Below are positions 23,601 to 57,930 of a DNA stretch of 64,000 nucleotides, one piece after another. Numbering within the stretch: position 1 is the stretch's first letter; each line of letters starts with the position of its first letter. A model generated the notes under the pieces. That model searched no databases. It worked only from the letters and a program-made list of their open reading frames with translations, and was not told the origin of the DNA. Source of the stretch: an uncultured Candidatus Saccharibacteria bacterium (GTDB lineage Bacteria; Patescibacteriota; Saccharimonadia; Saccharimonadales; CAYLGV01); the NCBI GenBank assembly GCA_964394925.1, contig CAYMZG010000006.1, positions 16,256 to 80,255 of the forward strand, written 5' to 3'. A program made the translations under genes and the position numbers.

Positions 23601-26600
23601 CAACACGCTCACCATTACACCGGCTCTCACATGGGCGAATGGTTCAGTAGTTGTTGAGTATCATGTACCAGAGCTTGGTGGCAGTAACACAAGCCAGCCT
23701 CTGGCAAATCGCTTTGGCCGCGGTTATTTCATCTCAGGTATCGCGACCGGTAACGGCACGACTTACTACAACGAGGACAGCATAACAACGTCACTTACGA
23801 GCTTCGATCTTTTGAATTCAGGTGTTACCACGTTAAACATTGGCGGTTCGGCAACAACCTTGAATCTGGGCAATGCGAGCACCACAACGACCATTAGTGG
23901 TAATGTGCAATTCACCGGTAGCGTGACGGCACCAACTAGCGGCACCTCTGGTTATCTGTCACGTAGTGGTACAACATTATCTCCATCGAATAGCGGCGAT
24001 AACTTTACTACGAGTGGTAATATTTCAACAACTGGAACAGGCGGCATCACCTCAGCCGGCGCGATTTCGGGCGCAACAACCGGTAACACCATTAATGGGT
24101 TAGTCATTAACTCAGGTGCATTGAGTAATATCACTACCTTGAACGCTTCTGGTCTGGCAACGGTGAACGGTCTTGATGCCGGGGCCGGTCAGATTACCAG
24201 CAGTGGTGGTCTCAGTATCACGGGTACCAGCTCAATCAACGGCAACAGCATCTCAAGCACGCAATTTACCTTCGGCGGCGCCGGCACCATTACAACAGGC
24301 AGCAATGGCAACCTCACCCTAGTACCAAATGGCTCAGGTAGCTTAGTATTGAACACGGGTACGGGTGGCACGGCAACCACAAACATTACGACCTTGCAGC
24401 GTACGGCAGCTGGTAGCCTGACATTTGATCTAAATGACACCGGCTCAACAACACTTACCCTTAACAACTCTGGTACAGGTGTAGCGAATCTCAACCTAAC
24501 AGATGGTGGCCTGTACACCGCAGGTACTCAGCGTATTGCTAACGGTGGTGCATTGCAGAATGTAACTGGTGACAACACCAACGGTGTTAGCTTGAACGCA
24601 AACGTTATTACTAGCGGTACGTTGAGCACCGCTCGAGGCGGTACGGGCGTAAATGGCTCAGGTGCTACAAATGGTCAACTACTCATAGGTAACGGCAGCG
24701 GCTTTACGCTCAGTAGTCTTACAAATGACGGGGGCCTAACCATAACTAATGGCGCAGGAAGCATTGGCATAGGGGTCAACTACGGATCAACCAGCACTTC
24801 GGCCGTCCGTGGCGACACTGGCCTCGTTTGTGCTTCGGGTACTGGCAACCTTACTGGTGGTGGCAACACTGTTACTCTTGGTGCTGGCGGCACCTGTAGC
24901 GCGCTTGATACAGCTGCGGCTGTTAGCTTCGGCACGAGCGTTACTACACCTCTCCTTACAACTGCTGGCGCACTCAATATTAATACGGCCAACTCAGCTG
25001 CAGCCAATACGGGTGCCATTACTATTAAGTCAGGTGATGCATCAACGGGTGCCAACTTGAGTGCTGGCACTATCACACTCGATACGGGTACTAAGACTGG
25101 CGCGGGTACAGCACTCATTAATATAGGTAACACAAATGCAACCAGCTTAGTGCTTGGCAATGCCAGCACAACCACAACCTTAAATGGCACAGGCTTAACG
25201 CTTGGCGCAGGTCTTAATACCATTACACGTACTGCTGCAGGTACAACCACCTTCAACTTGGTTGACACAGCAAACACTACATTCGCGTTTACTAACACTG
25301 GTGCAGGCAACTTAAATCTCACCGCCGACGGCACCATTACTGCAGGCAGTGGCTTAACCGTAAGTGCTAATGGTGCATCAATCAGTGGTGGCCTGAATAA
25401 CAACAGCGGTGGTATTAGCGGTGCTGGCTCAATAACCGGCGTTGGTACAAACATCACCGCAACCGCTGGTCTTACGATCGGTTCTGGCGGTACAGGCGAC
25501 CTTACGCTTGATTCAGCTTCGAACAAGTTGGTCATTGCGGCGAATGACACCACCATGCAACGTACTGCCACAGGATCATTTACGATTGATCTAAATGACA
25601 CAGGTGCAACCACGCTTGTTATTAATAACTCGGGCACGGGAGCTGCTAACTTGAACTTGAGCGATGGCGGTCTGCAGGTTGCCGGCACATCAGTGCTTAC
25701 TAACGGCGCTGCTCTGCAAAACATTGCAGGCTTTGGTCAGACATCTGGTAACTTTGCTATGAGTGGCACTGGTACGTTTGCTACGGGTAGTGGTAACGTA
25801 GGTTTGAATGGTGCAACGACCATTTCAACAAATGCCAACAGCACCTCATCATTAACGGTTAATGGTACTACTGGCACGGCTGCCACAGCCATGAACATTG
25901 CACAAACGGGCGCAGCAGGCAACTTGGCCATGACTAACACTGCTGCTACCAGCCAGGCTCTCGTAAGTCTCACGCAAAGTACATCGGCCTACACGGGCAC
26001 AGGACTCCTTATTAATATGGCATCTGGCTCGGGCACCTTTGCAAGTGGTAACTTCGCCGACTTCCAGTTGAACGGTACGAGTCGCTTTACGGTCGATAAC
26101 ACGGGTGCTCTAACTATTAACAGCACAAATGGTAATGCCCTGAAGGTTACGAACACATCAGGTGTCTCATACTTCGATGTTGATACCTCTGGCAACCAGA
26201 TTACTGTTGGTGCAGCCGACGCAACTACGGTACTCTTTGTACTAGACAGCTCATCTACGACCAGTGATCCAGGTGCTGTAGCTGGAGCGATGTACTACCG
26301 CACAAGTGATAGCAAGTTCCGCTGCGCAGAAGGTACTGCTTGGAAAGATTGTCTCACTGGTGCCGACTTCTCGGCCACACTATCTTCAGCCTTTACTGTC
26401 ACAAATGGTGGCTTAACAGCTGTGACCGGCTTCTCGTTCACAGCTACTGCAGGCGAGACCTGGGAAGTTACTGTAAATGGTACTACCTCTGCCAACAATG
26501 CCACCGGTGACATTGCATGTGATCTTATGACTGCAGGTACCTGGGGTACCGGGCAGTCATACAGCCAAGGCGTCCATTACTCGAATGCAGGTGCTATTAC

Positions 26601-26820
26601 CAACCGAGCACCAACGGCCGCAGCTTCAACTACCACGCAAGCAGGTACGTTAACGGTGAATAACGGTGATGGTGTTGTAAGACCAATTCAGATGACCTAT
26701 CGCTTTGTGGTTACCGCAAATGGAACAGTAAGCTTCCGTTGTGGTAACGCTGCGCCAGCAGCTGGACGTACATCAACGCTTAACTCGGGCGCAATTATGC
26801 TCGCGCGTCGCATCGATTAA
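20692..26820 (+). CDS. Giant membrane-anchored fibre protein with three tail-fibre-like tip units (2,042 aa)
   Basis: GTG start is the first start codon after an in-frame TAA. The N-terminus is basic with one TM helix (VGLGLFLVLVSLAVISY). A post-anchor domain follows (ELNFQARLMNASGGIVPDGNSYSVQFKLYD...LKLTAVPYAF). There are two GN[SA]FGA..LGT.DNN.L.F.TNG motifs, two poly-Gly hinges, and three tip-like beta-sandwich-type segments. Two of these are preceded by GAMYY....FRC...G.W.DC. Confidence 0.9.
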   Translation: MSKTRRPIDILRRTRRKPGIVRALQRVGLGLFLVLVSLAVISYTRAGARVGTYAGVSTRAYAAGSSELNFQARLMNASGGIVPDGNSYSVQFKLYDAASGGTNEWTETQGSMTVKSGYLSVHLGSVTPFGSSIDWSQEHWLTMNVNGDGEMSPRLKLTAVPYAFRSGQADKLTNGSGTLTANDLAQLAPSSVQAVNTALAALRINQQGSGLLAQLQGNGSDVFTVAKTGDVTSTGSASFDGNGTFKGGQLTVGTASQQGKLSLHDGAGNTLTLQSGAQSGNLTFTLPTSYGNNLECLKTNGSGVLSFGGCAPANAYTNGGNSFGAAATLGTQDNNSLSFVTNGSQRMLLDTAGNITLGTVDTTGSLLVLDTKSNAGDPTGSNGAMYYNSFMGKFRCYENGGWTDCISGASANTSANFVSGLQNVASNQTGAVVETMIFTSATAVSNTAGVTGFTAPANGSFRSCMVKNTAAITAGTLSVRWRVNGVSVGSAMCTMDSTNNRQTAGTLNSGVVTFNAGDTIGIAFDTSAGFLPTGTNDFTVYWGVDYTGGGGGGGGNVFDLQDAYDNSINASILTANNKDLTVSLANTSIDSNFIVDIQSGSTGEFKVQNNGTDVLRVNSNGDITSNGGLTLGNSTSTTAGTIRWTGLDFEGFDGATWKSLTSGGGGGGSGISSNYVNLVKQTNETVNNSIALQDDDELAFNIGANEEWTYRFVVQANSGTVPDLRFAVSAPAGATCFVSFSDPEGATSDGQYGCGVTSVSIPGNGAVDLYEITGSVKNGATPGVVRLRWAQFTLNASNTIVYAGSYVNAYRTIGSGGAGQPFAQSGNAFGATAVLGTTDNNALNFITNGTQVLSLATSGLATFQGGVTTNGALTVSSGGLAVTGNGSVSGGLTIGSSNALSISSSGDITGTMQALNGSSTASGAGTNSTSLVLASVTNFDVGNYVQVSSTNCTTGVNVCYAKITAIDIGTNTLTITPALTWANGSVVVEYHVPELGGSNTSQPLANRFGRGYFISGIATGNGTTYYNEDSITTSLTSFDLLNSGVTTLNIGGSATTLNLGNASTTTTISGNVQFTGSVTAPTSGTSGYLSRSGTTLSPSNSGDNFTTSGNISTTGTGGITSAGAISGATTGNTINGLVINSGALSNITTLNASGLATVNGLDAGAGQITSSGGLSITGTSSINGNSISSTQFTFGGAGTITTGSNGNLTLVPNGSGSLVLNTGTGGTATTNITTLQRTAAGSLTFDLNDTGSTTLTLNNSGTGVANLNLTDGGLYTAGTQRIANGGALQNVTGDNTNGVSLNANVITSGTLSTARGGTGVNGSGATNGQLLIGNGSGFTLSSLTNDGGLTITNGAGSIGIGVNYGSTSTSAVRGDTGLVCASGTGNLTGGGNTVTLGAGGTCSALDTAAAVSFGTSVTTPLLTTAGALNINTANSAAANTGAITIKSGDASTGANLSAGTITLDTGTKTGAGTALINIGNTNATSLVLGNASTTTTLNGTGLTLGAGLNTITRTAAGTTTFNLVDTANTTFAFTNTGAGNLNLTADGTITAGSGLTVSANGASISGGLNNNSGGISGAGSITGVGTNITATAGLTIGSGGTGDLTLDSASNKLVIAANDTTMQRTATGSFTIDLNDTGATTLVINNSGTGAANLNLSDGGLQVAGTSVLTNGAALQNIAGFGQTSGNFAMSGTGTFATGSGNVGLNGATTISTNANSTSSLTVNGTTGTAATAMNIAQTGAAGNLAMTNTAATSQALVSLTQSTSAYTGTGLLINMASGSGTFASGNFADFQLNGTSRFTVDNTGALTINSTNGNALKVTNTSGVSYFDVDTSGNQITVGAADATTVLFVLDSSSTTSDPGAVAGAMYYRTSDSKFRCAEGTAWKDCLTGADFSATLSSAFTVTNGGLTAVTGFSFTATAGETWEVTVNGTTSANNATGDIACDLMTAGTWGTGQSYSQGVHYSNAGAITNRAPTAAASTTTQAGTLTVNNGDGVVRPIQMTYRFVVTANGTVSFRCGNAAPAAGRTSTLNSGAIMLARRID

Positions 26821-43979: not shown

Positions 43980-45494
43980 ATGGCTACACTAAAAGACTTT
44001 CGCGACGAGCGGATTAAAAAACTAGACGCGCTCAAAGAGCTTGGTATCAACCCGTATCCTGCCGAAGCACATCGAACGCACCAGATCGGTGATATTATTG
44101 CTGGCTTCAGTGATCTGGAAGGGCAAGAAGCAACCGTGGTTGGTCGTATTAAAAGTATTCGCAAGTTTGGCAAAATTGCCTTTGTGGTTATTCGTGATGC
44201 CAGCGGTGAAATCCAGCTGTTCCTAAAGCATGACACACTGGCGCCACTCGACGCCGCTAACAGTCAGCTTGGTTTTGATAACCTCGGACTCCTAGATCTT
44301 GGTGATTTTCTTGAAGCTCACGGCCCGATTATAAAAACGCAAACGGGCGAAATATCTATCGACACCCAAAGCATTCGCTTGCTCACAAAGAGCTTGCGGC
44401 CAATCCCAACTGACCACAATGGTTTTACGAACAAAGAAGAGCGCTTACGACGACGCTACATTGATACAACTGTAAATAAAGATGTGTATGACCGTTTCTT
44501 GCGCCGCAGTCGTTTCTGGCAGGCCACACGTAAGTATCTCGACGAGCATGGCTTTGTCGACATGAGCATACCAGTGCTTGAGCACACCACCGGTGGCGCC
44601 GATGCCAACCCATTTGTCACACACATGGATGCCCTCGACCAAGATTTCTTCCTCCGCATTAGCCAGGAATTACCGCTTAAGCGGCTAATTGGTGGCGGCT
44701 ACGAAAAAGTCTACGACATTGGTCCACGCTTTCGGAACGAGAACTACACTGATGAGCATTTGCCTGAGCACGTGGCCATGGAATGGTACGCAGCGTACTG
44801 GAACTGGCAAGATGGTATGCGCTTTATGACTGATATGTACCGCAGCATTATTGAACAAACATTTGGTACGTTGCAGTTCAAGATTGGCCAGTTCGATATT
44901 GATCTTGCCAAAGACTGGGAAGAGCTGGATTACTCACAGGCCATTAAAGATCGTTATGGTATTGATGTGTTTGGCTGCACACTCGAAGAAGTTAAAAAGG
45001 CTTTGGCCGACAATAAGCTCGAAGTAGAGAAGGCCGACAACAAAGCTCGTGGCATTGATAAGCTCTGGAAAAATATACGTAAAGATATAGCCGGCCCCGT
45101 TTGGTTAGTTAACACGCCGCTTTTTGTTAGCCCGCTGGCCAAAGTGAACCAGGCCAATCCACAAACCGTGCAGCGTTTTCAGCCGGTGATTGCGGGTACG
45201 GAACTTGGCAACGGCTACAGCGAGCTAAATGACCCTATTGATCAGCTCAATCGTTTTGTTGAACAACAAGCCATGCGTGACGCCGGTGATGACGAAGCCA
45301 TGATGCTCGACATTGACTACGTTGAAATGCTCGAATACGGTATGCCGCCAACCTGCGGTTGGGGCTTTAGTGAGCGCGTTTTTTGGGTGTTTGAAGGGGT
45401 AACAGCACGTGAAGGCGTACCGTTCCCACAGCTTCGCTCCGAAGTCGACGAAACTACCAAAGCCATTTACCCCAATCTCAAACTCGGTAAATAA
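43980..45494 (+). CDS. lysS: Lysyl-tRNA synthetase, class II
   Basis: N-terminal OB-fold (VVGRIKSIRKFGKIAFVVIRDASGEIQLF) and class II motifs (FRNENYTDEHLPEH, GWGFSERV). Confidence 0.93.
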   Translation: MATLKDFRDERIKKLDALKELGINPYPAEAHRTHQIGDIIAGFSDLEGQEATVVGRIKSIRKFGKIAFVVIRDASGEIQLFLKHDTLAPLDAANSQLGFDNLGLLDLGDFLEAHGPIIKTQTGEISIDTQSIRLLTKSLRPIPTDHNGFTNKEERLRRRYIDTTVNKDVYDRFLRRSRFWQATRKYLDEHGFVDMSIPVLEHTTGGADANPFVTHMDALDQDFFLRISQELPLKRLIGGGYEKVYDIGPRFRNENYTDEHLPEHVAMEWYAAYWNWQDGMRFMTDMYRSIIEQTFGTLQFKIGQFDIDLAKDWEELDYSQAIKDRYGIDVFGCTLEEVKKALADNKLEVEKADNKARGIDKLWKNIRKDIAGPVWLVNTPLFVSPLAKVNQANPQTVQRFQPVIAGTELGNGYSELNDPIDQLNRFVEQQAMRDAGDDEAMMLDIDYVEMLEYGMPPTCGWGFSERVFWVFEGVTAREGVPFPQLRSEVDETTKAIYPNLKLGK

Positions 45495-45533
45495 TACTTC
45501 AATTTGCATAGCGCTCAAGTTGCTGAAGTTTGT

Positions 45534-45539
45534 TAAAAT
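45534..45539 (+). promoter_or_regulatory. -10 box (TAAAAT) 6 nt upstream of ABC ATPase ATG; leaderless-type arrangement
   Basis: Sequence tgtTAAAATatacctATG. Confidence 0.4.
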
Positions 45540-45545
45540 ATACCT

Positions 45546-46322
45546 ATGATTGAGGTGAAAAATCTATCGAAGGTGTATGGCAAAAAAGAGAACACCTTTA
45601 CCGCACTTAAGGACATAAGTTTTAAGATTCCTGACGGCGCTACGGTGGCCATTATTGGCAAGAGTGGCTCGGGCAAATCAACCCTCATGCATGTTATGAG
45701 CGGCTTAGACCGCCCGAGCGACGGCGAAATAGTTATTAATGGGCGCGTGCTTAGTGAACTCAAGAAAAAAGCCATGGATCGCTTTCGGGCTAAGGAAATG
45801 AGTTTTATTTTTCAGTCGTTCTTCGTTGAGGCTAATCAGACATGTTACCAAAACGTGGCTTTGCCTCTTGAAATCTCGGAAGTGGCTTTTTCGCGCCGCC
45901 GCAGGCAAGTGACTGAGGCACTCGAAGCAGTTGATTTGGCCGACAAAATTAACAGCAAGGCCAAAGATCTAAGCGGTGGCCAAAAACAGCGCCTAGCGAT
46001 CGCACGCGCCATTGTAAACAAACCAAAACTTATCTTTGCCGACGAGCCAACCGGCAATCTCGACAGTAACACTGGTGATCTGATCATTAAGCTGTTATTT
46101 GGCCTTAACAAGAGTCTTGGAGCAACACTCTGTATTGTTACGCATGACCCCGAACTCGCCGCGCGTTGCCAGATCCAAATTAGTTTACGTGATGGTAAAA
46201 TTGTGAAGATTGTTGATACCGCGTCGGCTTCGACCAATAAGCCAAGCGCGTCGGTGAAGGCAAGCACTAAAGCAGCCGCTAAGAAAACCCCCACATCCAG
46301 CAAGCGAAAGGCAGCCGCATGA
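45546..46322 (+). CDS. ABC transporter ATP-binding protein (MacB/LolD-like) with Lys/Ala/Ser-rich C-terminal tail
   Basis: Walker A (GKSGSGKST), signature (LSGGQKQRLAIARA) and Walker B (LIFADEPTGNLD). The tail reads TNKPSASVKASTKAAAKKTPTSSKRKAAA. Confidence 0.92.
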   Translation: MIEVKNLSKVYGKKENTFTALKDISFKIPDGATVAIIGKSGSGKSTLMHVMSGLDRPSDGEIVINGRVLSELKKKAMDRFRAKEMSFIFQSFFVEANQTCYQNVALPLEISEVAFSRRRRQVTEALEAVDLADKINSKAKDLSGGQKQRLAIARAIVNKPKLIFADEPTGNLDSNTGDLIIKLLFGLNKSLGATLCIVTHDPELAARCQIQISLRDGKIVKIVDTASASTNKPSASVKASTKAAAKKTPTSSKRKAAA

Positions 46323-47680
46323 AAATTATAGACAGCATTCGTCGCAGTGGGCGCAATATTCGTTCTTCTAAAGCGCGTACTATTTTAACGGCGCTGGCCA
46401 TCGCCGTCGGCGCGTTTACACTTACCTTAACGCTCGCTGCCAGTAATGGTACACAAGCGTTTGTGAACAAAATTATTAAGGACAATTTTGATCCAGCCGA
46501 GCTGATTGTGGCCCGCGACGACGTATTCGCAAATAATGGGAATAGTAAACCACAAGAGTATGACCCTACTTTTGGTACGGCTCAAGGTGCAGCTGCTCAG
46601 ATCAAGCGTTTAACAGAGGACGACCTTACTAAGCTTAAGAACATGCAAGGTGTTGAATCGGTTCGCTTAGCTCAGCCAGTGAATTTGGCCTACATTACCA
46701 GGCCTGGCCAAAAGAAGTTTGTTGCCTCGGTTTCTCCGTTTTCGCCGGCTCAAAAACCAGAACTCGATGCCGGCGTAATTATCCGTCCATTCCCCGATAA
46801 AACAGTGCTACTAGCTGAAGCCTATGTTCCATTACTTGGTTTTACTAGTTCGCAAGACGCTGTTGGGAAAAACATTACTATAGCGGTTCGTAAGGGTCTC
46901 GACACGGCTGCCCTGCAAGACCTTATTCGTCAGGGACAGGGAACACCCAACGAGCAACAGCTCCAGTCGGTAGTAAACAACTCACTTTATAGTGAAGAGT
47001 TCAAAATATCGGGTGTGACCAAAAAGCCAACCACCTCGCAGCCTGGTACCGAATTAAATCTCTACGTAAGTGACACTGCCGCTGGTCGTTTGCTCGATAT
47101 TAGCACTCAGAACACGAGTGATTACCGTAAGTATCCATATGTATACGTACGAGTTAAGAATGGCTCCGACAAAGCCACGCTGTTGGCAGTACAAAATGAA
47201 CTCAAGAAGCAGGGCTTCACGGCACAGAGCGTAGAAGACACGCAGAAGTTCTTAACGAACATTCTAAAAGTATTACAGGGAATCGTGGTGGCGTTTGGTT
47301 TGATTGCCGTTATTGCCTCAATCTTTGGCGTAATTAACACCATGTACATTAGTGTGCTGCAACGCACGCGCGAAATTGGCCTCATGAAGGCGCTCGGCAT
47401 GCGCAAACGAGAAGTTGGTCGATTGTTTAGATTTGAGGCGGCCTGGATTGGTTTCATCGGTGGTTTACTCGGTTCGCTTATCGCTTTTGGCCTGGGTACC
47501 GCGCTTAACCCTTGGATCACTAAAAAACTTCAATTAGGCGATCAAAATCTACTGCAATTTAAGTTGCCACAGATCATTGTACTCATTTTGATTCTCATGC
47601 TCGTGGCACTTGTGGCAGGTCTGTTGCCGGCACGACGCGCAGCTAAGCTTGATCCAATCGAAGCCTTAAGAACCGAGTAA
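46319..47680 (+). CDS. ABC transporter permease, FtsX/MacB-type with large extracytoplasmic domain
   Basis: An ATGA overlap links it to the ATPase gene. The N-terminal TM helix is followed by a ~270-aa periplasmic-type domain and the C-terminal FtsX-like 3-TM bundle (REIGLMKALGMRKREV). Confidence 0.88.
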   Translation: MKIIDSIRRSGRNIRSSKARTILTALAIAVGAFTLTLTLAASNGTQAFVNKIIKDNFDPAELIVARDDVFANNGNSKPQEYDPTFGTAQGAAAQIKRLTEDDLTKLKNMQGVESVRLAQPVNLAYITRPGQKKFVASVSPFSPAQKPELDAGVIIRPFPDKTVLLAEAYVPLLGFTSSQDAVGKNITIAVRKGLDTAALQDLIRQGQGTPNEQQLQSVVNNSLYSEEFKISGVTKKPTTSQPGTELNLYVSDTAAGRLLDISTQNTSDYRKYPYVYVRVKNGSDKATLLAVQNELKKQGFTAQSVEDTQKFLTNILKVLQGIVVAFGLIAVIASIFGVINTMYISVLQRTREIGLMKALGMRKREVGRLFRFEAAWIGFIGGLLGSLIAFGLGTALNPWITKKLQLGDQNLLQFKLPQIIVLILILMLVALVAGLLPARRAAKLDPIEALRTE

Positions 47681-47737
47681 GTACGTGTATATGTAGTAGT
47701 ATATACCTCCTTGAGACGTAATAGAGACAAGGTGTGG

Positions 47738-47743
47738 TATAGT
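47738..47743 (+). promoter_or_regulatory. Extended -10 (TGgTATAGT) 7 nt upstream of ATG 47751; leaderless-type arrangement
   Basis: Sequence gtGTGGTATAGTgtgacccATG. Confidence 0.5.
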
Positions 47744-47750
47744 GTGACCC

Positions 47751-48713
47751 ATGGCTACAACTAAGAAATCCTCCAAGGCAACATCAAAGACTGCAAAAAA
47801 ACCAACTGCTAAGAAAACAACAAGCGCAGCTAAAACAACTAAGGCTACCACGAGCAAAAAGGCGACCACAGCCAAGAAGCCAGTAGCAAAAACTGCTGCA
47901 GCAGAAAAGACTAGTACCGCTAAGAATGCTAAAGCTAATGTTTCTAAAAAAAGCACCAAAAAACCAGCTGACCGTAAAACGGTTCTACGACGCTTAAACC
48001 TGACAAGTGCGCTATTCGGTTTGCTTGGCGCTGTTGCAGCCGGCTTACTCATGAACACCACGAGCTACCAATTCTTAACTGGTCTGCTGACCACTAACCC
48101 ACTGACTGGGGGATTAGCTCCAGCAGTACATGCGGTGTGGGATGTTGAACTACGCTGGATTGTAGTAGGAATATTAGTGCTCTCGAGCCTCGTACCGCTG
48201 CTAGCCGCAACTCGTGCACGCAAGAAGTACGAAGCTGCTTTAGATAGTAAAGTTATGAAGTGGCGTTGGATTGATACGGCAGTTATTGGCAGTTTAATTG
48301 TGGCAACTATCGCGCTTCTGAGCGGCGTGCAAGACATCATGACACTCGTTCTTATTGGTGGTTTTGTTTGGCTCTCAGCGGCTCTTGGTTTAATGGCCGA
48401 AAAGCAAAATGCTGGTGCTACACGTTCGTACCGCGGGGCCTTTACCATTGGCATGTTTGCCAATGCGTTGCCATGGCTTCTCATTTTGGTTTACGCACTA
48501 GGTACATCAATCTGGGGAATGACGCATAATAGCTGGGCGGTCTACGGCATCTACATTACAACACTGCTATGTGGTTTTGGTATGGTCTCAGCGCAACGCG
48601 CTTACATTGATCGCAAGAACGACTACGATGTAAGCGAGCAACGCTACCTTGTATACGGCATACTTTCAAAAGTTACCTTCGTGCTGCTGTTGGTTCTTGG
48701 TTTCAAGAAGTAA
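47751..48713 (+). CDS. Probable heliorhodopsin-family 7-TM protein with ~75-aa Lys/Thr/Ala-rich N-terminal extension
   Basis: The core, from about residue 78, aligns motif by motif with heliorhodopsin 48C12 as I recall that sequence. The matched pairs are LRRLN.....F.LL/LQNFN.....F.LL, KKY...RWIDT/KRY...RWVEY, GVQDI/GIADI, LMAEK/WLQEK, ALPWLLILVY/IVPWIGLLIY and YGIY/YGII. A Lys in the last helix (GILSKVTF) sits at the Schiff-base position (LVAKSAL). No HMM search was run. Confidence 0.6.
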   Translation: MATTKKSSKATSKTAKKPTAKKTTSAAKTTKATTSKKATTAKKPVAKTAAAEKTSTAKNAKANVSKKSTKKPADRKTVLRRLNLTSALFGLLGAVAAGLLMNTTSYQFLTGLLTTNPLTGGLAPAVHAVWDVELRWIVVGILVLSSLVPLLAATRARKKYEAALDSKVMKWRWIDTAVIGSLIVATIALLSGVQDIMTLVLIGGFVWLSAALGLMAEKQNAGATRSYRGAFTIGMFANALPWLLILVYALGTSIWGMTHNSWAVYGIYITTLLCGFGMVSAQRAYIDRKNDYDVSEQRYLVYGILSKVTFVLLLVLGFKK

Positions 48714-49988
48714 ATGGCCACCGAACACGTAAAGATTGAAAAACTCGTTCACGGCGGGCAGGCGCTTGGTGTGCTTGGCGATGGTCGGAAAGTATTAGCC
48801 TGGAACGCACTACCGGGTGAAAGGGTCACTGTTGAGCTGCGTAAAAGCAAGCACTCGTTTGCCGAAGGCATCGCAACCGACATCATTGAAGCTTCAACAG
48901 AGCGACAAGCGCCACGCGACGAAGCATATTTGAGCACCAGTCCGTGGCAAATGATGACGTTCGAGGCTGAACAAGCTGCCAAAGCATCAATTTTACTCGA
49001 AACGTTTCAGCGTGAGGGCGTGAACCTGACGGCCGACATTGCAGATAAACTTGAATGCATCACAGACAAAAACCAGTGGCATTACCGCAATAAGATGGAG
49101 TATAGCTTTTGGGGCGACGACGATGGGTTGCATCTAGCGCTATTTCACCGAGCTAGTCATGGTAAGCGAATTATTACAGGTAGTAGTATTGCGCGCCCCG
49201 AGATTGACACAGCTGCCAATGCTATTTGTACTGCGCTGAACACGGCCAACATTCGAGGCAGTCAGCTTAAAACCGTCGTGCTTCGTTGTAATATGGCAGG
49301 TGACACGGTGGCAGCATTATATGTAAAAGATGAAGCATTTCCTGATTTAGCTGTTTTACATGATTTGGTGACGGGCAACCTGAAGGGCATTGTGGTATTT
49401 TTCTCAAACCCCAAGAGTCCAGCAAGTGTATATACCAAAACGCTACATGAGTACGGCAGCGCCACACTGAGTGAACAAATTCTCGGCAAGAAGATTACCT
49501 ATGATGTGCGTTCGTTCTTCCAGGTGAATATACCTATTTTTGAACGTGCTTTGAAAGAAATTAAAGCCCACATAACCGAACGACCCGTTACTGATTTTTA
49601 CTGCGGAGTCGGGACAATTGGCATTCCGCTACAGGCAGAAGCGTTTGTAGAAAGTGACTCGGCAAACGTAGCAAAACTACGTGAAAATCTTGGTCAAAAC
49701 GAGAAAAGAATCATCGAGGCGACTGCCGAAGAAGCACTGGAACATTTGCCCACCGAAGGCACACTTATCGTTGATCCGCCGCGGGCAGGGCTGCACGCCA
49801 AAGTTGCTGAAAAACTTCATGAAGTACAGCCGGCAAGCATTGTATATCTCAGTTGTAATCCAATTACGCAAGCTCGTGATATTGCGCGTTTGCAAGATGT
49901 ATACGAACTTGCGTCGCTGCGGGCATACAACTTTTTCCCGCGAACGCCCCATACAGAGAGCTTGGCCGTGTTGCGCCGCCGCTCGTAG
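48714..49988 (+). CDS. RNA (uracil-5-)-methyltransferase, RlmD/RumA/TrmA family
   Basis: TRAM-like N-terminus, SAM fold, DPPRAGL, and the catalytic-Cys motif VYLSCNPITQARD. Confidence 0.85.
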   Translation: MATEHVKIEKLVHGGQALGVLGDGRKVLAWNALPGERVTVELRKSKHSFAEGIATDIIEASTERQAPRDEAYLSTSPWQMMTFEAEQAAKASILLETFQREGVNLTADIADKLECITDKNQWHYRNKMEYSFWGDDDGLHLALFHRASHGKRIITGSSIARPEIDTAANAICTALNTANIRGSQLKTVVLRCNMAGDTVAALYVKDEAFPDLAVLHDLVTGNLKGIVVFFSNPKSPASVYTKTLHEYGSATLSEQILGKKITYDVRSFFQVNIPIFERALKEIKAHITERPVTDFYCGVGTIGIPLQAEAFVESDSANVAKLRENLGQNEKRIIEATAEEALEHLPTEGTLIVDPPRAGLHAKVAEKLHEVQPASIVYLSCNPITQARDIARLQDVYELASLRAYNFFPRTPHTESLAVLRRRS

Positions 49989-50019
49989 TGCCGTAGTATG
50001 ACGACAGGAAACAATAAAC

Positions 50020-50706
50020 ATGAAACTTCACCGATTTTATCTCCCAGAGACTGACCTCAAACATGATCTATGGATTCACGATCAGCGGCTGATCCACCAG
50101 TGGCGCAATGTTCTGCGCTTTAAGCCGGGCCAACAGGTTATTTTATTCGACGGCAAAGACGACGACCGTCTGTATCGACTCGAAGAGCTAACCAGCGATG
50201 AAGCGCATGTGCTTTATATAACTGATCGCGAGCGAGTACTGCCCCAAAAAGACATCTACCTGTTGTGGTCACTTCTTAAAAAAGACAAAAACGACTGGGT
50301 ACTGCAGAAGGGGACTGAGCTGGGCGTGAGCCATTTTTTGCCGTTGCTCGCTGATAGGAGTGAAAAGACCGGTTTTAACATTGAACGAGCCGAAAAAATC
50401 ATCATCGAAGCTGCCGAACAATGTGGCCGCAGCGACATTCCAACGGTACGTGAACCGATGCATGTTCAAACAGCTATTGAAGAACTCAAAGACAAGGTAG
50501 CGCTGTATATATGTGAGCAGGGTGGCGCAGATCAACCAGCAGAAGCCGATCGAGTAGGGGTCTTAATTGGGCCAGAGGGTGGTTGGTCGGATAGTGAGAA
50601 GGAATTGTTCAAGACTTGTAATATGTCCGCGATTCATCTCCACGACTTCACGCTGCGCGCCGAGACGGCATGCCTGCAGGCAATCTCCTATATAAGTAAC
50701 ATGTAA
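50020..50706 (+). CDS. rsmE: 16S rRNA (uracil1498-N3)-methyltransferase RsmE
   Basis: MKLHRFYLP at the N-terminus, with GVLIGPEGGWSDSE. At 228 aa the size is right for RsmE. Confidence 0.88.
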   Translation: MKLHRFYLPETDLKHDLWIHDQRLIHQWRNVLRFKPGQQVILFDGKDDDRLYRLEELTSDEAHVLYITDRERVLPQKDIYLLWSLLKKDKNDWVLQKGTELGVSHFLPLLADRSEKTGFNIERAEKIIIEAAEQCGRSDIPTVREPMHVQTAIEELKDKVALYICEQGGADQPAEADRVGVLIGPEGGWSDSEKELFKTCNMSAIHLHDFTLRAETACLQAISYISNM

Positions 50707-50720
50707 TAGTACGAGCAAAC

Positions 50721-51692
50721 ATGAAAATAACAGATATAAATATCCAGCCACTAGCCCAAGAGCAAGAGGCTTGGGCACGTACGTGGGCTAAAAAGTCACC
50801 ATTGCATATATCAACTGGTGAGTTACGAGCCTTGATTGGTGTACTGTTTCTCGGTTCTGTAGTGGCGTTGTATATCGTGGCGGGTCCACTCGGTGCAGTC
50901 ATTGGTTCAATAGTTGTCGCCGGTACGATATCGGCACTGATTCACCGACTCAATACTAAAAAACGTGCCTGGCAGAACTTCGCCAAAGTAAATGGTTGGG
51001 AGTATCTTTCAGGGGCAGCCAAAGATGACACAAACACCTATTTCCCAACGGTAATACCTGGCAACCCGATCTTGGATTACTACGAGTACGTGGTTCGTGG
51101 TGCTATTGAAGATCTTGATTGCATGTTTATGTCAGACGGTCTGACGTGCATGATCATCACCGTTAGGCTACCGTCAGTCATGCCGCACCTTCTATTAAAG
51201 AGTTTGCGATCAAGTACGATGTTTGACAACCGAGATACAATCGAGGGCGAAGCGTTAGAAGGTGAGTTTAGTAAGCATTTTACGTTGTATCATCACAAGA
51301 ATGATCAAGTAAATGCCCTGAGTGTTATAACGCCAGATGTCATGCAAGTATTGTTGAATAATAATCAAGATCAGCATGTAGAAATAATTGACGACAAGCT
51401 CTTCCTAGTGACTCCATACTCTGGAAATGTGAACTTAGCTAATTACACTGCGGCCACGATTCTGTTAGCTAAAGAAATTGTTCATCGAGCTAATGCACTT
51501 CAGCAGGTGGCTCAGTCGGCTGGCAGTCATGCCGAAGTTCTGTATCAGAAGAGTTGGGATGAATACGATACCTATACTAAGAATCACACGGGCACGAGGG
51601 GAGTCTGGCGTTTCTATGTTATGTTTGCATTATGTTGCGTACTCATTGTCGTGGTCACTCTGCTACTAGCACGTATATTCCCGAATAAATAA
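50721..51692 (+). CDS. Membrane protein, DUF3137-like
   Basis: Two N-terminal TM helices, FAKVNGWEY, LEGEFSKHFTLYH...LSVITPDVMQVL, and a C-terminal TM helix. The family assignment is from memory of the DUF3137 pattern. Confidence 0.7.
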   Translation: MKITDINIQPLAQEQEAWARTWAKKSPLHISTGELRALIGVLFLGSVVALYIVAGPLGAVIGSIVVAGTISALIHRLNTKKRAWQNFAKVNGWEYLSGAAKDDTNTYFPTVIPGNPILDYYEYVVRGAIEDLDCMFMSDGLTCMIITVRLPSVMPHLLLKSLRSSTMFDNRDTIEGEALEGEFSKHFTLYHHKNDQVNALSVITPDVMQVLLNNNQDQHVEIIDDKLFLVTPYSGNVNLANYTAATILLAKEIVHRANALQQVAQSAGSHAEVLYQKSWDEYDTYTKNHTGTRGVWRFYVMFALCCVLIVVVTLLLARIFPNK

Positions 51693-55329: not shown

Positions 55330-57930
55330 GTGAACAAGGTTTTTAAACGTGTTTTAGGGGATCCACAAGCAAAAACATTGCGTCGTATGCGCCGTCGCGT
55401 TCGTGACATTAATGAACTCGAAGCCAAATACAAAAAAATGAACGACAAAAAACTACAGGAGCAGACCGACAAACTAAAAGACCGATTAAAGAAAGAAACG
55501 CTCGACAAAATCTTGCCGGACGCCTTTGCGGTGGTGCGTGAGGGTGCACGTCGCACGCTTGGGCAGCGCCACTTCGACGTACAGTTGATCGGTGGCATGG
55601 TACTGCACGAGGGTAAAGTTGCCGAAATGAAGACTGGTGAAGGTAAAACCTTGGTAGCCACGGCGCCTGTGTATTTGAATGCGCTCACAGGCAAGGGTGT
55701 GCACGTGGTGACGGTTAACGACTATCTGGCACAGCGTGACGCTGGTTGGATGGGTCAAGTCTACGATTTTCTGGGGCTTACAACTGCGGTTATCATCGCC
55801 GACGAGTCGTTCATTTTTGACAAGAATTTTAAAAACAAAAATCATGCTGATCCTCGCATGCAAAAACTCAAGCCATGTACGCGCCAAGAGGCTTATGCTG
55901 CCGATATTACGTATGGCACCAACAATGAATTTGGTTTTGACTATTTGCGCGACAACATGGTTCGTGAAGTTGATCAGCTACGTCAGCGTGAACTGCACTA
56001 CGCAATTGTCGACGAAGTTGACTCTATTCTCATCGACGAAGCTCGTACGCCGCTTATTATTAGTGCGCCCAGCGTAACGAGCGGTACGGCCTATGCACAG
56101 TTTTCAAAAGTCGTGCGCCAACTCAACAAAGAAGATCACTACGAAGTCGATGAAAAGCGCAAAGCCGCCACGCTCACCGATGAAGGCATTAAGAAAGTCG
56201 AGAAGATTCTTGGTATTGATCACCTGTACTCAACTGATAATATTCGTACTATTTATCACCTCGACCAAGCCCTGAAGGCGCAGGCCTTATTCCACCGAGA
56301 CAAAGATTACGTGGTAACCAAAGACGGCGAAGTGGTGATTGTTGACGACTTCACGGGTCGTTTGCTGAAGGGTCGTCGCTATAACGAAGGTTTGCACCAG
56401 GCGATTGAGGCCAAAGAGGGTGTAGAAGTACAGGAAGAGTCCATGACACTGGCTACCATTTCATTCCAAAACTACTTCCGTTTGTATGAAAAACTAGCTG
56501 GTATGACCGGTACGGCCGAGACCGAAGAAGAGGAATTTCACCAGGTGTATAAGCTCGATGTCGTCGTGATCCCATCGAATCGCCCGGTAGCTCGTGATGA
56601 TCGCCCAGACCGTATTTATCGCACAGAGGGTGGCAAGTTTAAAGCCATTGCCCGTGAAGTTGCGGCGTTACACCACAAGGGTCAGCCAGTACTTATCGGT
56701 ACCGTTTCCATCGAAAAGAACGAATCTCTGAGTAATCTGTTGAAGAAAGCCAAGATTCCACACCAGATTTTAAACGCCAAGAACAACGAAAAAGAAGCTG
56801 CCATTGTTGAAAAAGCCGGACAAAAAGGCGCGGTAACACTTGCCACGAACATTGCTGGTCGTGGTACGGACATTGTGCTCGATGACGATGCTAAGAAGGC
56901 TGGCGGTTTGTTCGTGCTTGGTTCGGAGCGTCATGAATCACGTCGTATTGACAACCAGCTACGTGGTCGTTCTGGTCGCCAAGGCGACCCCGGTGTAACC
57001 CAGTTCTTTGTAAGCACCGAAGACGATCTGATGCGTATTTTCGGCGGTGAACGCATTGCTGGTATCATGGATCGCCTCGGTGTAGACGACGAAACACCAA
57101 TCGAGAACCGCGTTATTAGCAAAAGCCTCGAAGGTGCCCAGAAGAAGGTGGAAGGTTTTAACTTTGACACTCGAAAGACAGTGGTGCAGTACGACGACGT
57201 CATGAACCGTCACCGTAAGGCAACCTACATTATGCGTCGCGAAATCCTTATGCAGGCCGACATTAAAAAGCGCATTAAAGCGTTTATCGAAGACGAAGCT
57301 AAGGCTTTGGCAAACTCACCAATGCTCATGTCTGACCAGTTCGAAAACGTTGTGAAAGAGAGTTTCCCATTCGACGACGAAACGCTCGATCGCTTGTTCG
57401 ATGCTGATACCAATGAGTTTGGTAAAGTGTTGTTAACAGAAGCACAAGAACTGTACGAAGGCCGCGAAGCCGCCTTTGGCGAAGACATTATGCGTAAGGT
57501 TGAGCGCGACATCTATCTGCAAATTCTGGATAACTTATGGATGCAACACCTCGAAAGCATGGACCACATGCGCGAGGGGATTCACTGGATCAGCGTTGGT
57601 CAGCGTGACCCGTTGGTTGAGTACCGTCGCCAGGCACAAATTATGTTCGATCAAATGCAACAGACGCTTCGCCACGAAGTCGTTCGCGCGTTATTTAGTG
57701 CCGAGCCAGTCGACGTGGAGCGTGCCGTAGAAACCGAGCTAACCAAAGCCGCTCGAAACTCAGTCGATAATGCCGACAAGATCATCGACGCCGAAGAGTT
57801 TGAAGAGACTGACTTTGTGCCGTTAGCCACGGAGCAGGCAGCTAAAAAGAAGAGTCACGACAAGCTTAAAAAAGCTCGCAAGCAAGAACGTCAACGTAAG
57901 ACTAAAGCCAAGAATCGAAAGCGCAAATAA
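55330..57930 (+). CDS. secA: Preprotein translocase ATPase SecA; C-terminal zinc-finger replaced by a Lys/Arg-rich tail
   Basis: MKTGEGKTLVATAPVYLNAL, DEVDSILIDEARTPLIIS and TNIAGRGTDI match SecA. There is no Cys in the last ~100 residues. The protein ends AAKKKSHDKLKKARKQERQRKTKAKNRKRK. Confidence 0.96.
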   Translation: MNKVFKRVLGDPQAKTLRRMRRRVRDINELEAKYKKMNDKKLQEQTDKLKDRLKKETLDKILPDAFAVVREGARRTLGQRHFDVQLIGGMVLHEGKVAEMKTGEGKTLVATAPVYLNALTGKGVHVVTVNDYLAQRDAGWMGQVYDFLGLTTAVIIADESFIFDKNFKNKNHADPRMQKLKPCTRQEAYAADITYGTNNEFGFDYLRDNMVREVDQLRQRELHYAIVDEVDSILIDEARTPLIISAPSVTSGTAYAQFSKVVRQLNKEDHYEVDEKRKAATLTDEGIKKVEKILGIDHLYSTDNIRTIYHLDQALKAQALFHRDKDYVVTKDGEVVIVDDFTGRLLKGRRYNEGLHQAIEAKEGVEVQEESMTLATISFQNYFRLYEKLAGMTGTAETEEEEFHQVYKLDVVVIPSNRPVARDDRPDRIYRTEGGKFKAIAREVAALHHKGQPVLIGTVSIEKNESLSNLLKKAKIPHQILNAKNNEKEAAIVEKAGQKGAVTLATNIAGRGTDIVLDDDAKKAGGLFVLGSERHESRRIDNQLRGRSGRQGDPGVTQFFVSTEDDLMRIFGGERIAGIMDRLGVDDETPIENRVISKSLEGAQKKVEGFNFDTRKTVVQYDDVMNRHRKATYIMRREILMQADIKKRIKAFIEDEAKALANSPMLMSDQFENVVKESFPFDDETLDRLFDADTNEFGKVLLTEAQELYEGREAAFGEDIMRKVERDIYLQILDNLWMQHLESMDHMREGIHWISVGQRDPLVEYRRQAQIMFDQMQQTLRHEVVRALFSAEPVDVERAVETELTKAARNSVDNADKIIDAEEFEETDFVPLATEQAAKKKSHDKLKKARKQERQRKTKAKNRKRK

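Follow-up and report, generated by a model that had tools for sequence, protein, structure and literature searches.

The role of heliorhodopsins (HeRs) is still largely open and few partner proteins are known; those of the characterized members are glutamine synthetase, photolyase and the ABC exporter OmrDE, contacted via charged cytoplasmic residues (PMC11109279), and a 2025 preprint calls the meaning of HeR 'a mystery'. In Saccharimonadia and other bacteria of the Candidate Phyla Radiation (CPR), 80 occurrences of the family have been reported, with the helix-G motifs SLVAK, SLIAK and SFVAK (Chiriac et al., PMC9166423). N-terminal extensions of HeRs are also on record: Bulzu et al. 2021 (PMC8612252) describe N-terminal fusions to MORN and zinc-ribbon domains and ten extension variants (ntv1-10), of which only ntv1 has a profile match. 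We analyzed 64,000 nucleotides from an uncultured Candidatus Saccharibacteria bacterium (GenBank assembly GCA_964394925.1, contig CAYMZG010000006.1, positions 16,256 to 80,255 of the forward strand; 'the window' denotes this whole stretch), in which positions 47751-48713 encode a HeR. Neither the HeR family, nor its occurrence in Saccharibacteria, nor N-terminal extensions of HeRs as such are new. What we describe here is a bona fide member of the family with a lineage-wide polycationic N-terminal arm, within a branch that is remodelling or losing its photochemistry. A literature search found no published description of such an arm, which may be among the uncharacterized variants ntv2-10, as far as the available text of that study goes. 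An earlier interpretation of this DNA, made from its letters alone (the sequence-only reading), had proposed a heliorhodopsin with a Lys-rich tail. It listed HeRs in Saccharibacteria, which are indeed documented (PMC9166423), and took their restriction to monoderm bacteria as established, a point that is disputed in the literature (Kovalev et al. 2020, PMC7049168).

How does the window protein compare with these described systems? With the canonical HeRs 48C12 and TaHeR (PDB 6su3, 6is6) it has in common the Pfam family, the seven-helix fold, the β-hairpin of the A-B loop and, by prediction, the N-in topology; it differs in having a core identity of just 18-23% and an additional 77-aa polycationic tail at its N-terminus. 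The canonical-type Saccharibacteria HeRs (P0067, P0068 and P0275 among them) occupy the same locus and start with the same MATTKK... tail. They keep H23/H80/E107/S237/K241 (48C12 numbering) together with the SLVAK motif, whereas the window HeR reads GILSK and has a remodelled Schiff-base shell. The zinc-ribbon and MORN HeRs likewise carry a cytoplasmic addition at the N-terminus, read as a downstream interaction module (PMC8612252). These additions are folded domains, found in Thermoplasmatales and Firmicutes, while the Saccharibacteria tail is a disordered, low-complexity polycation. PDB entry 9VFC, a 317-aa HeR considered as a possible tailed HeR, was set aside as a eukaryotic HeR (Cv06) unrelated to the Saccharibacteria tail. 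The gene and its parts lie as follows.

47751-48713, forward strand: HeR coding sequence, ATG start, 320 aa, TAA stop; a complete Saccharibacteria heliorhodopsin ortholog.
47745-47747, forward strand: in-frame TGA stop two codons before the HeR ATG, which fixes the start codon.
47751-47981, forward strand: N-terminal tail, aa 1-77, polycationic, disordered and predicted to be cytoplasmic (composition, pLDDT, conservation, codon comparison).
47751-47801, forward strand: best-conserved tail motif, aa 1-17, MATTKKSSKATSKTAKK, with the clade consensus MATTKKSTKAKTKTTKK (position frequencies in 137 tailed homologs).
47982-48710, forward strand: seven-helix heliorhodopsin core, aa 78-320, with the A-B loop β-hairpin at aa 105-133 (profile, model, Foldseek).

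The assignment to the heliorhodopsins rests on both profile and fold. Residues 79-308 match the Pfam family PF18761 (Heliorhodopsin) over profile positions 1-231 of 242, with 101 bits against a cutoff of 26.7 (E = 8.6e-29), and a phmmer search of the PDB returns heliorhodopsins only (TaHeR, 1.5e-12; 48C12, 2.6e-9). An AlphaFold2 (AF2) model built on 68 homologs has a core pLDDT above 90, with helices at residues 75-100, 134-153, 170-190, 196-220, 229-255, 262-286 and 292-317 and the HeR-typical hairpin in the A-B loop (strands 105-115 and 122-133). The ten best Foldseek matches of this model in the PDB are all HeRs (TaHeR and 48C12; target-normalized TM 0.83-0.90, rmsd 1.9-3.1 Å), with type-1 rhodopsins ranked far below them. 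Predicted cytoplasmic segments of the core hold 19 Lys and Arg residues versus 3 on extracellular segments, and the N-terminus adds a charge of +22; on the model, the protein is a predicted seven-transmembrane (7-TM) HeR of inverted topology, its N-terminus in the cytoplasm. The sequence-only reading had named the family correctly, and the core blocks that it aligned to 48C12 were all recovered by HMMER, including RWIDTAV versus RWVEYSL; the lack of a significant heliorhodopsin match, which it had listed as grounds for giving up the assignment, is not what we find.

Does this protein still bind retinal? To address this question, we followed the positions described as conserved across all HeRs (Kovalev et al. 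2020, PMC7049168), aligned via 48C12 residues 11-243. Three features of the gene matter most here.

48669-48671, forward strand: Lys307 (AAA), equivalent to K241 of 48C12, the Schiff-base position in helix G (HMMER, MAFFT, ungapped helix G alignment).
48273-48275, forward strand: Asp175 (GAT), equivalent to Glu107 of 48C12, the counterion position (HMMER, MAFFT).
48264-48269, forward strand: Arg172-Trp173, equivalent to R104/W105 of 48C12, in a cytoplasmic R/E/E/Y cluster with E217, Y292 and E296.

Eleven of the 48C12 residues are retained: N16 (N83 in the window HeR), S76 (S145), Y92 (Y160), R104 (R172), W105 (W173), E149 (E217), W173 (W242), Q213 (Q282), Y226 (Y292), E230 (E296) and K241 (K307). 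The others are substituted, namely H23 by G90, H80 by P149, N101 by M169, E107 by D175, Y108 by T176, S111 by I179, M141 by S209, I142 by A210, F206 by G275 and S237 by G303. His23 and His80 line the Schiff-base cavity and are described as conserved in all HeRs (PMC7049168); the window HeR has Gly and Pro in their place. Nor does it show the SxxxK motif that serves as a criterion for HeRs (PMC9166423), in which Ser237 is hydrogen-bonded to the Schiff base, as G303 stands at that position in the motif GILSK. The acidic counterion on helix C is present, as Asp rather than Glu, an exchange with structural precedent in the E108D mutant of TaHeR (7clj). Within the subclade of the window HeR (16 sequences, down to 43% identity), K307 is invariant and position 175 is either D or E. 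Because K307, D175 and S145 are retained and the lysine is invariant in the subclade, retinal binding has likely been kept, and we consider it somewhat probable that the window HeR binds retinal at K307. Most of this had been anticipated: the Lys at the Schiff-base position, in register in helix G, the Asp counterion and the Gly for His23 are as the sequence-only reading had them, whereas His80, which it gave as replaced by Val, is P149 in both HMMER and MAFFT, with V148 adjoining; it is not His in either case.

Where would the retinal come from? Among the open reading frames (ORFs) of the window, Pfam detects no blh, phytoene synthase, phytoene desaturase, lycopene cyclase family or type-1 rhodopsin, in line with the earlier remark that no retinal-biosynthesis gene is visible nearby. 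Published work likewise finds that Saccharibacteria with rhodopsins lack blh and that these rhodopsins take up external retinal rapidly (PMC9296517). As no biosynthesis genes are present, the retinal of the window HeR is presumed to be external.

The tail is part of the protein. The 320-aa translation given before for this frame was reproduced exactly, and the identical HeR protein was found on two Logan contigs. Translation has to include the tail, because a stop codon lies two codons upstream of the ATG and the first possible later starts in frame (ATG, GTG or TTG, at aa 91 and aa 101) are within helix A, which the model places at residues 75-100. This excludes a start codon after the Lys-rich region, which would have removed the tail from the protein. 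In comparison with the closest DNA homolog (L003), 24 tail codons are identical, 19 differ synonymously and 25 nonsynonymously, versus 90, 110 and 43, respectively, in the core, and length differences between the two tails are in-frame indels only. The tail is therefore coding sequence under a constraint weaker than that on the core.

The 78 residues before L79 consist of 23 K, 18 T, 17 A, 8 S, 3 P, 3 V, 2 N and one each of M, E, D and R, with a net charge of +22 and no aromatic residue. Residues 1 to ~70 have a pLDDT of 41-54 and no secondary structure in the AF2 model. Pooled over the clade, tails contain 25% K, 21% T, 16.5% A, 10% S, 7% V, 4% R and 4% P, that is ~29% K+R, with 2% acidic residues, less than 1% aromatics and ~5% L/I/M/F; their length varies from 36 to 88 aa and their net charge from +8 to +27. 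Beyond the conserved N-terminal motif, composition is conserved and sequence is not. Short motifs were counted past residue 18, in the body of the tail, and compared with 200 composition-preserving shuffles, which ignore sequence relatedness and so inflate z-scores. KKP (108 observed versus 34 expected), AKKP (33 versus 5) and KKPA (49 versus 5) are enriched, with z = 12-18 on this inflated scale, PAKK only weakly (z = 3, likewise with relatedness ignored), and KKK is depleted (18 versus 198). The earlier description of a cytoplasmic, polycationic, low-complexity tail thus agrees with what we see; its label 'histone-H1-like' holds for composition, but homology to H1 or Hc2 was rejected, the match to the H1-like Pfam family HC2 (PF07382) being sub-threshold and compositional only. 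A search with the tail alone in 5.8 billion proteins returned no matches, a result that is uninformative given the composition filters of HMMER.

Is the tail peculiar to this protein? A phmmer search with the core against 1.84 billion representatives yielded 576 hits at E <= 1e-3. The window HeR sits in a divergent branch, ~30% identical to the canonical-type Saccharibacteria HeRs, and our divergent set of 215 sequences combines its 71 closest homologs with the best 150 of the 576 core matches. With a tail defined as 30 aa or more added at the N-terminus and carrying a net charge of +7 or higher, 156 of these 215 relatives have one, and 95 of these 156 start with MATT, MATK or MATR. In the canonical-type set, all 122 sequences carry H23/H80/E107/S237/K241, and 104 of them have a tail (median 71 aa, net +20), starting with MATT in 84 cases; one of its clusters, P0275, is annotated by NCBI as 'heliorhodopsin HeR [Candidatus Saccharibacteria bacterium]'. 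These counts are underestimates, because gene callers sometimes cut off the tail: the start of P0291 (257 aa) is mis-called, and its frame runs on upstream without a stop as MATTTKKSSARKKP... (L023:5806-6000, MATTTKKSSARKKPTPKKSS...). The tail seen in the window is real, then, and its scope is wider than first proposed, extending to more than 250 independent homologs across the lineage. Since it occurs in canonical and divergent orthologs at one locus, the tail was, as far as these sequences tell, present in the ancestor of the Saccharibacteria HeRs, and it can coexist with a photoreceptor site that is canonical throughout.

Nor are polycationic termini a general habit of these genomes. We scanned 232 ORFs from the window and the first 14 loci (~260 kb) for a terminus of 40 aa that carries a net charge of +10 or more and no more than three hydrophobic residues, and only HeR (N-terminus) and SecA (C-terminus) have one; the idea of a genome-wide habit was rejected on this count, and on the finding that the basic tail of an ABC ATPase is not conserved. 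The latter protein, encoded upstream of HeR at 45546-46322 on the forward strand, ends in a Lys/Ala/Ser/Thr-rich stretch of ~35 aa (...KPSASVKASTKAAAKKTPTSSKRKAAA), and its orthologs (232-244 aa, versus 258 aa in the window) are without a basic C-tail. SecA (55330-57930, forward strand) ends in a Lys/Arg-rich C-terminal tail, ...AAKKKSHDKLKKARKQERQRKTKAKNRKRK, conserved in all related loci and without Cys in the part examined. Ribosomal protein L31 (36350-36691, reverse strand, 113 aa) has its Pfam domain at residues 1-77, followed by a Lys/Ala-rich C-terminal extension.

All these HeRs share one place in the genome. A scan for related loci, based on the 16-sequence alignment with one genome per species, found 12, of which 11 are titled as Saccharibacteria/Saccharimonadales or Patescibacteria metagenome-assembled genomes; the twelfth, a 6.8-kb contig labelled Limnocylindrales, is probably mis-binned. 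The conserved block comprises a ProRS/HisRS-type aminoacyl-tRNA synthetase, GreA, LysRS, variable genes, HeR, a TRAM-containing U5-methyltransferase, RsmE, a PD-(D/E)XK nuclease, SerRS, HPF and SecA. It is present in every long locus, with no difference between canonical, divergent, Lys-less and tail-less members. From this shared synteny it follows that these Saccharibacteria HeRs are orthologs, descended vertically from a single gene that holds a fixed place in the core genome. The gene that follows HeR is:

48714-49988, forward strand: TRAM and (uracil-5)-methyltransferase of the RlmD/TrmA family (Pfam PF05958, PF01938), its ATG directly after the HeR stop.

The HeR-methyltransferase junction measures 0-7 nt in the window and in nine other loci (L003, L004, L005, L007, L008, L009, L013, L020, L021). 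No terminator-like hairpin was found in 45400-50800 (shuffles give 7 +/- 2.3), and the 70-nt gap upstream of HeR offers no good candidate for a sigma-70-like promoter. As the two genes abut and no such hairpin occurs in this interval, HeR and the U5-methyltransferase are likely to be co-transcribed. Upstream of HeR, the neighborhood varies. The MacB-type ABC/FtsX pair found there in the window was considered as a conserved partner by comparison with HeR-OmrDE and rejected, as it is absent beside HeR in L004, L006, L008, L011, L015, L017 and L020 and belongs to a different ABC type. MsrA (PF01625) lies directly upstream of HeR in 13 loci (L004-L011, L013, L014, L020-L022; e.g. L020:5127-5606). 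This adjacency fits a published link between HeR and oxidative-stress defense; in the window, where neither tblastn nor Pfam finds an MsrA in the 64 kb, the link is not conserved.

Across the divergent branch, the retinal site itself is changing. In the alignment of 215 sequences, the Schiff-base column holds K in 152, R in 32, Q in 8, L in 6, A in 4 and T in 4, with few others; the counterion column of the clade alignment holds D in 102, E in 47 and G in 19, and the H23 and H80 columns are mostly F/Y/S and P/S. The loss of Lys requires at least 29 state changes on a crude neighbor-joining tree, including one large Arg clade. We considered an alignment artifact and rejected it: helix G is gapless, with an E-R-N-Y anchor, and no Lys occurs within +/-3 columns. 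The Lys-less members that were checked are intact orthologs at the same locus (L019, L021 and L022 among the divergent loci noted). An acidic counterion is retained in 17 of 18 Arg-type sequences (alignment A1), and from sequence one would expect the pair of Arg and acid to imitate a protonated Schiff base with its counterion. Another divergent clade keeps the Lys and has Gly at the counterion position. With or without the Lys, the cytoplasmic cluster persists (R104 in 94-97%, W105 in 97-100%, E149 in 89-95%, E230 in 87-91%, Y226 in 70-79%), and the tail is equally conserved in Lys-holding and Lys-less relatives. Judged by these residues, a photoreceptor role is not guaranteed for the branch as a whole, though the window HeR keeps K307 and D175. 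The nearest known parallel is found in Rh-noK, type-1 rhodopsin-like proteins in which the retinal Lys is replaced, as it is in relatives of the window HeR that stay intact and conserved. The present case concerns the heliorhodopsin family, and the window HeR itself retains its Lys. A literature search on heliorhodopsin and Rh-noK turned up no account of a HeR clade without the lysine.

What might the tail do? Identity, orthology, the fixed locus and a disordered, translated, gene-specific and conserved tail are, taken together, virtually certain. We propose that the window HeR would bind external retinal at K307, with D175 as counterion, in a remodelled Schiff-base shell (H23 to G, H80 to P, S237 to G, S111 to I), and that it may act via its cytoplasmic face, where the cluster of R172, W173, E217, Y292 and E296 is conserved, like the characterized regulatory HeRs. 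In a last and least certain step, the tail could, by its charge, keep a polyanion tethered to the cytoplasmic face at the membrane; the sequence-only reading had likewise suggested a tether, to DNA, RNA, polyphosphate or an acidic partner. The favored polyanion is nucleic acid, either nucleoid DNA or ribosomal and other RNA, so that nucleic acid would be linked to the membrane, and to light where the Lys is kept, with no separate transducer in between. We assign a probability of roughly 0.4 to the chain as a whole, from retinal binding through regulation to a tail that tethers a polyanion, nucleic acid being the most likely one.

Four considerations lead us to put nucleic acid forward, tentatively and at somewhat less than even odds, as the ligand of the tail. 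The tail lacks hydrophobic anchor residues. Its spaced Lys doublets with AKKP and KKPA resemble the PAKK/KAAK repeats of actinobacterial HupB, which are indispensable for DNA binding there (PMC5676037). The best precedent from a membrane protein is YidC, whose positively charged tail is the main point of contact for the ribosome (PMC5186731). Finally, the tail is dispensable for topology, given the 19:3 distribution of K+R in the core. Both parallels have their limits. Like the tails of HupB and histone H1/H5, the HeR tail is disordered, rich in Lys and poor in acidic residues; it is Thr/Ser-rich rather than Ala/Pro-rich, however, forms the N-terminus of a membrane protein and not an appendage to a soluble DNA-binding fold, and has no detectable homology to them. 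YidC/Oxa1-type proteins share with HeR the combination of an integral membrane protein and a cytoplasmic, positive, unstructured tail, but they belong to a different family and bear the tail at the opposite terminus. A bolder version, in which HeR is a membrane-anchored H1/HU-like tether that holds nucleoid DNA or ribosomes at the membrane in ultrasmall cells, modulated by light where the Lys is kept and constitutive where it became Arg, strikes us as unlikely.

Several observations weigh against the proposed chain. The window protein falls 0.2 bits short of the NCBIfam equivalog NF038020 'HeR' (99.8 bits versus a cutoff of 100), a cutoff that implies the same function as characterized HeRs; by this measure the protein is within the HeR family and too divergent for automatic same-function naming. 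With several pocket and Schiff-base residues altered (S237G, S111I, Y108T, N101M, F206G, M141S, I142A), retinal binding is uncertain, and 61 of 210 full-length divergent sequences (~30%) are without the Schiff-base Lys altogether. As for the tail, KAAK, PKK and [ST]PKK are not enriched over shuffles and PAKK is so only weakly, the HC2 match reaches 11.6 bits (E = 0.29) where the cutoff is 40, and the kinship among tail sequences, disregarded by the shuffle z-scores, makes the enriched motifs less impressive than they appear. KKK could be depleted because slippery stretches of poly-A in the mRNA are avoided, not because of a grammar of binding. Genuinely tail-less orthologs exist (L010, L011, L024), so the tail is dispensable in some lineages. 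Composition cannot tell DNA, RNA, polyphosphate, anionic lipid and acidic protein apart, and the ligand of the tether is inferred by analogy. The position of HeR beside two rRNA methyltransferases, finally, may be that of a gene in a mere conserved housekeeping block.

Could the tail bind lipid instead of nucleic acid? Held permanently at the membrane surface, it would experience a very high effective concentration of anionic phospholipids (phosphatidylglycerol or cardiolipin) in the inner leaflet, and with a net charge of +8 to +27 across the clade it might bind them, clustering or positioning HeR or recruiting lipids, with no role for nucleic acid. The sole other polycationic terminus in our scan belongs to SecA, itself a protein that works at the membrane. 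Membrane-binding polybasic segments usually pair charge with hydrophobic or lipid anchors, however, and the tail, with its scarcity of aromatics (<1%) and of L/I/M/F (~5%), has little to offer in this respect; its 36-88 aa and conserved N-terminal motif also exceed the needs of plain surface adhesion. We regard lipid binding as an improbable explanation of the tail.

A protein partner is the next candidate. Here the tail would be a fly-casting arm that recruits a specific acidic enzyme or transporter, with the U5-methyltransferase, MsrA and the MacB-type ABC pair as candidates. Characterized HeRs do regulate their partners via electrostatic cytoplasmic contacts (PMC11109279), in many loci the start codon of the methyltransferase adjoins the HeR stop, MsrA is directly upstream in 13, and the N-terminal 17 aa are conserved in the manner of a short linear motif. 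Yet the ABC pair, MsrA and the methyltransferase are each missing from the locus in several tail-bearing genomes, the window being without MsrA, and the body of the tail is conserved by composition, not by sequence, which makes recruitment of one such partner doubtful.

The repeated loss of Lys raises the question of whether light matters at all. HeR might be a 7-TM scaffold whose cytoplasmic cluster and tail serve a structural or transport-like role, such as membrane organization or lipid scrambling in a lipid-scavenging episymbiont, with K307 as a relic or an option. Scramblase activity is not known from any HeR. The 61 Lys-less sequences, the 29 or more changes behind them and the orthology of those checked at the same locus all fit a light-independent role, as do the acidic counterion kept in 17 of 18 Arg sequences, a pair that would mimic the Schiff base and its counterion, and the equal conservation of cluster and tail with and without Lys; light-independent activity has also been reported for a proteorhodopsin (PMC10730872). 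On the other side, the Lys is kept in ~70% of sequences at 30-40% identity and is invariant in the window subclade, which argues for purifying selection on retinal binding in most lineages, and 122 of 122 canonical orthologs keep the full H/H/E/S/K site together with the tail. For the window HeR, we give a light-independent role little credence.

That the tail is a determinant of biogenesis or topology, whether as a very strong positive-inside signal that imposes the N-in orientation or as an element of translation or targeting that aids insertion with a reduced machinery, we hold to be very unlikely. HeRs do follow the positive-inside, negative-outside rule (PMC7049168), and an N-terminus of +22 cannot be translocated. 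The core alone, though, already has 19 K+R inside versus 3 outside, canonical HeRs and the genuinely tail-less Saccharibacteria orthologs manage without a tail, and FtsX, RseP and the CAAX protease in the same genomes have no such extension. Weakest of all, and practically negligible, is an annotation artifact in which the Lys-rich stretch is an untranslated leader and the true start lies later: gene callers do sometimes pick an internal Met in relatives (P0291) and a Shine-Dalgarno-like AAGGTG lies 16 nt upstream of the ATG, rather far, but the TGA two codons upstream, the lack of any ATG, GTG or TTG before aa 91 in helix A, and a reading frame and MATTKK start kept in more than 250 homologs with in-frame indels only speak clearly against it.

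The remainder of the window (GC content 48.7%) holds core housekeeping genes only, apart from three giant ORFs in a row on the forward strand. The first (136-12483, 4115 aa) has a weak carbohydrate-binding match, the second (12971-19297, 2108 aa) contains Kelch repeats, and the third (20692-26820, 2042 aa) has no Pfam match. At one syntenic position, LysRS is class II (PF00152) in the window (43980-45494, forward strand), L017, L020 and L022, and class I-type (PF01921) instead in L021:1467-2996 and L024:3332-4861, which looks like displacement between the two types within Saccharibacteria. Between RsmE and the PD-(D/E)XK nuclease, a 323-aa ORF with predicted hydrophobic segments (50721-51692, forward strand) has neither a Pfam match nor a counterpart in the compared loci. 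Over the 64 kb, Rfam reports no family above threshold, and hence no tRNA or rRNA.

What does a tailed heliorhodopsin mean for the family and for its hosts? A conserved, gene-specific polycationic arm, present in hundreds of orthologs within one phylum, provides a handle on what the cytoplasmic face of HeR acts upon. The repeated loss of Lys at one orthologous locus, with tail and cytoplasmic cluster kept, is a natural experiment with which light-dependent functions could be separated from those of a light-independent scaffold. Both help to fill in what little is known about light sensing or light use in genome-reduced, episymbiotic Saccharibacteria that depend on external retinal. If the proposed tether to nucleic acid is true, it would be the first direct coupling of a photoreceptor to nucleic acid among microbial rhodopsins, and the orthologs at this locus would form a natural series from light-dependent to light-independent heliorhodopsins.

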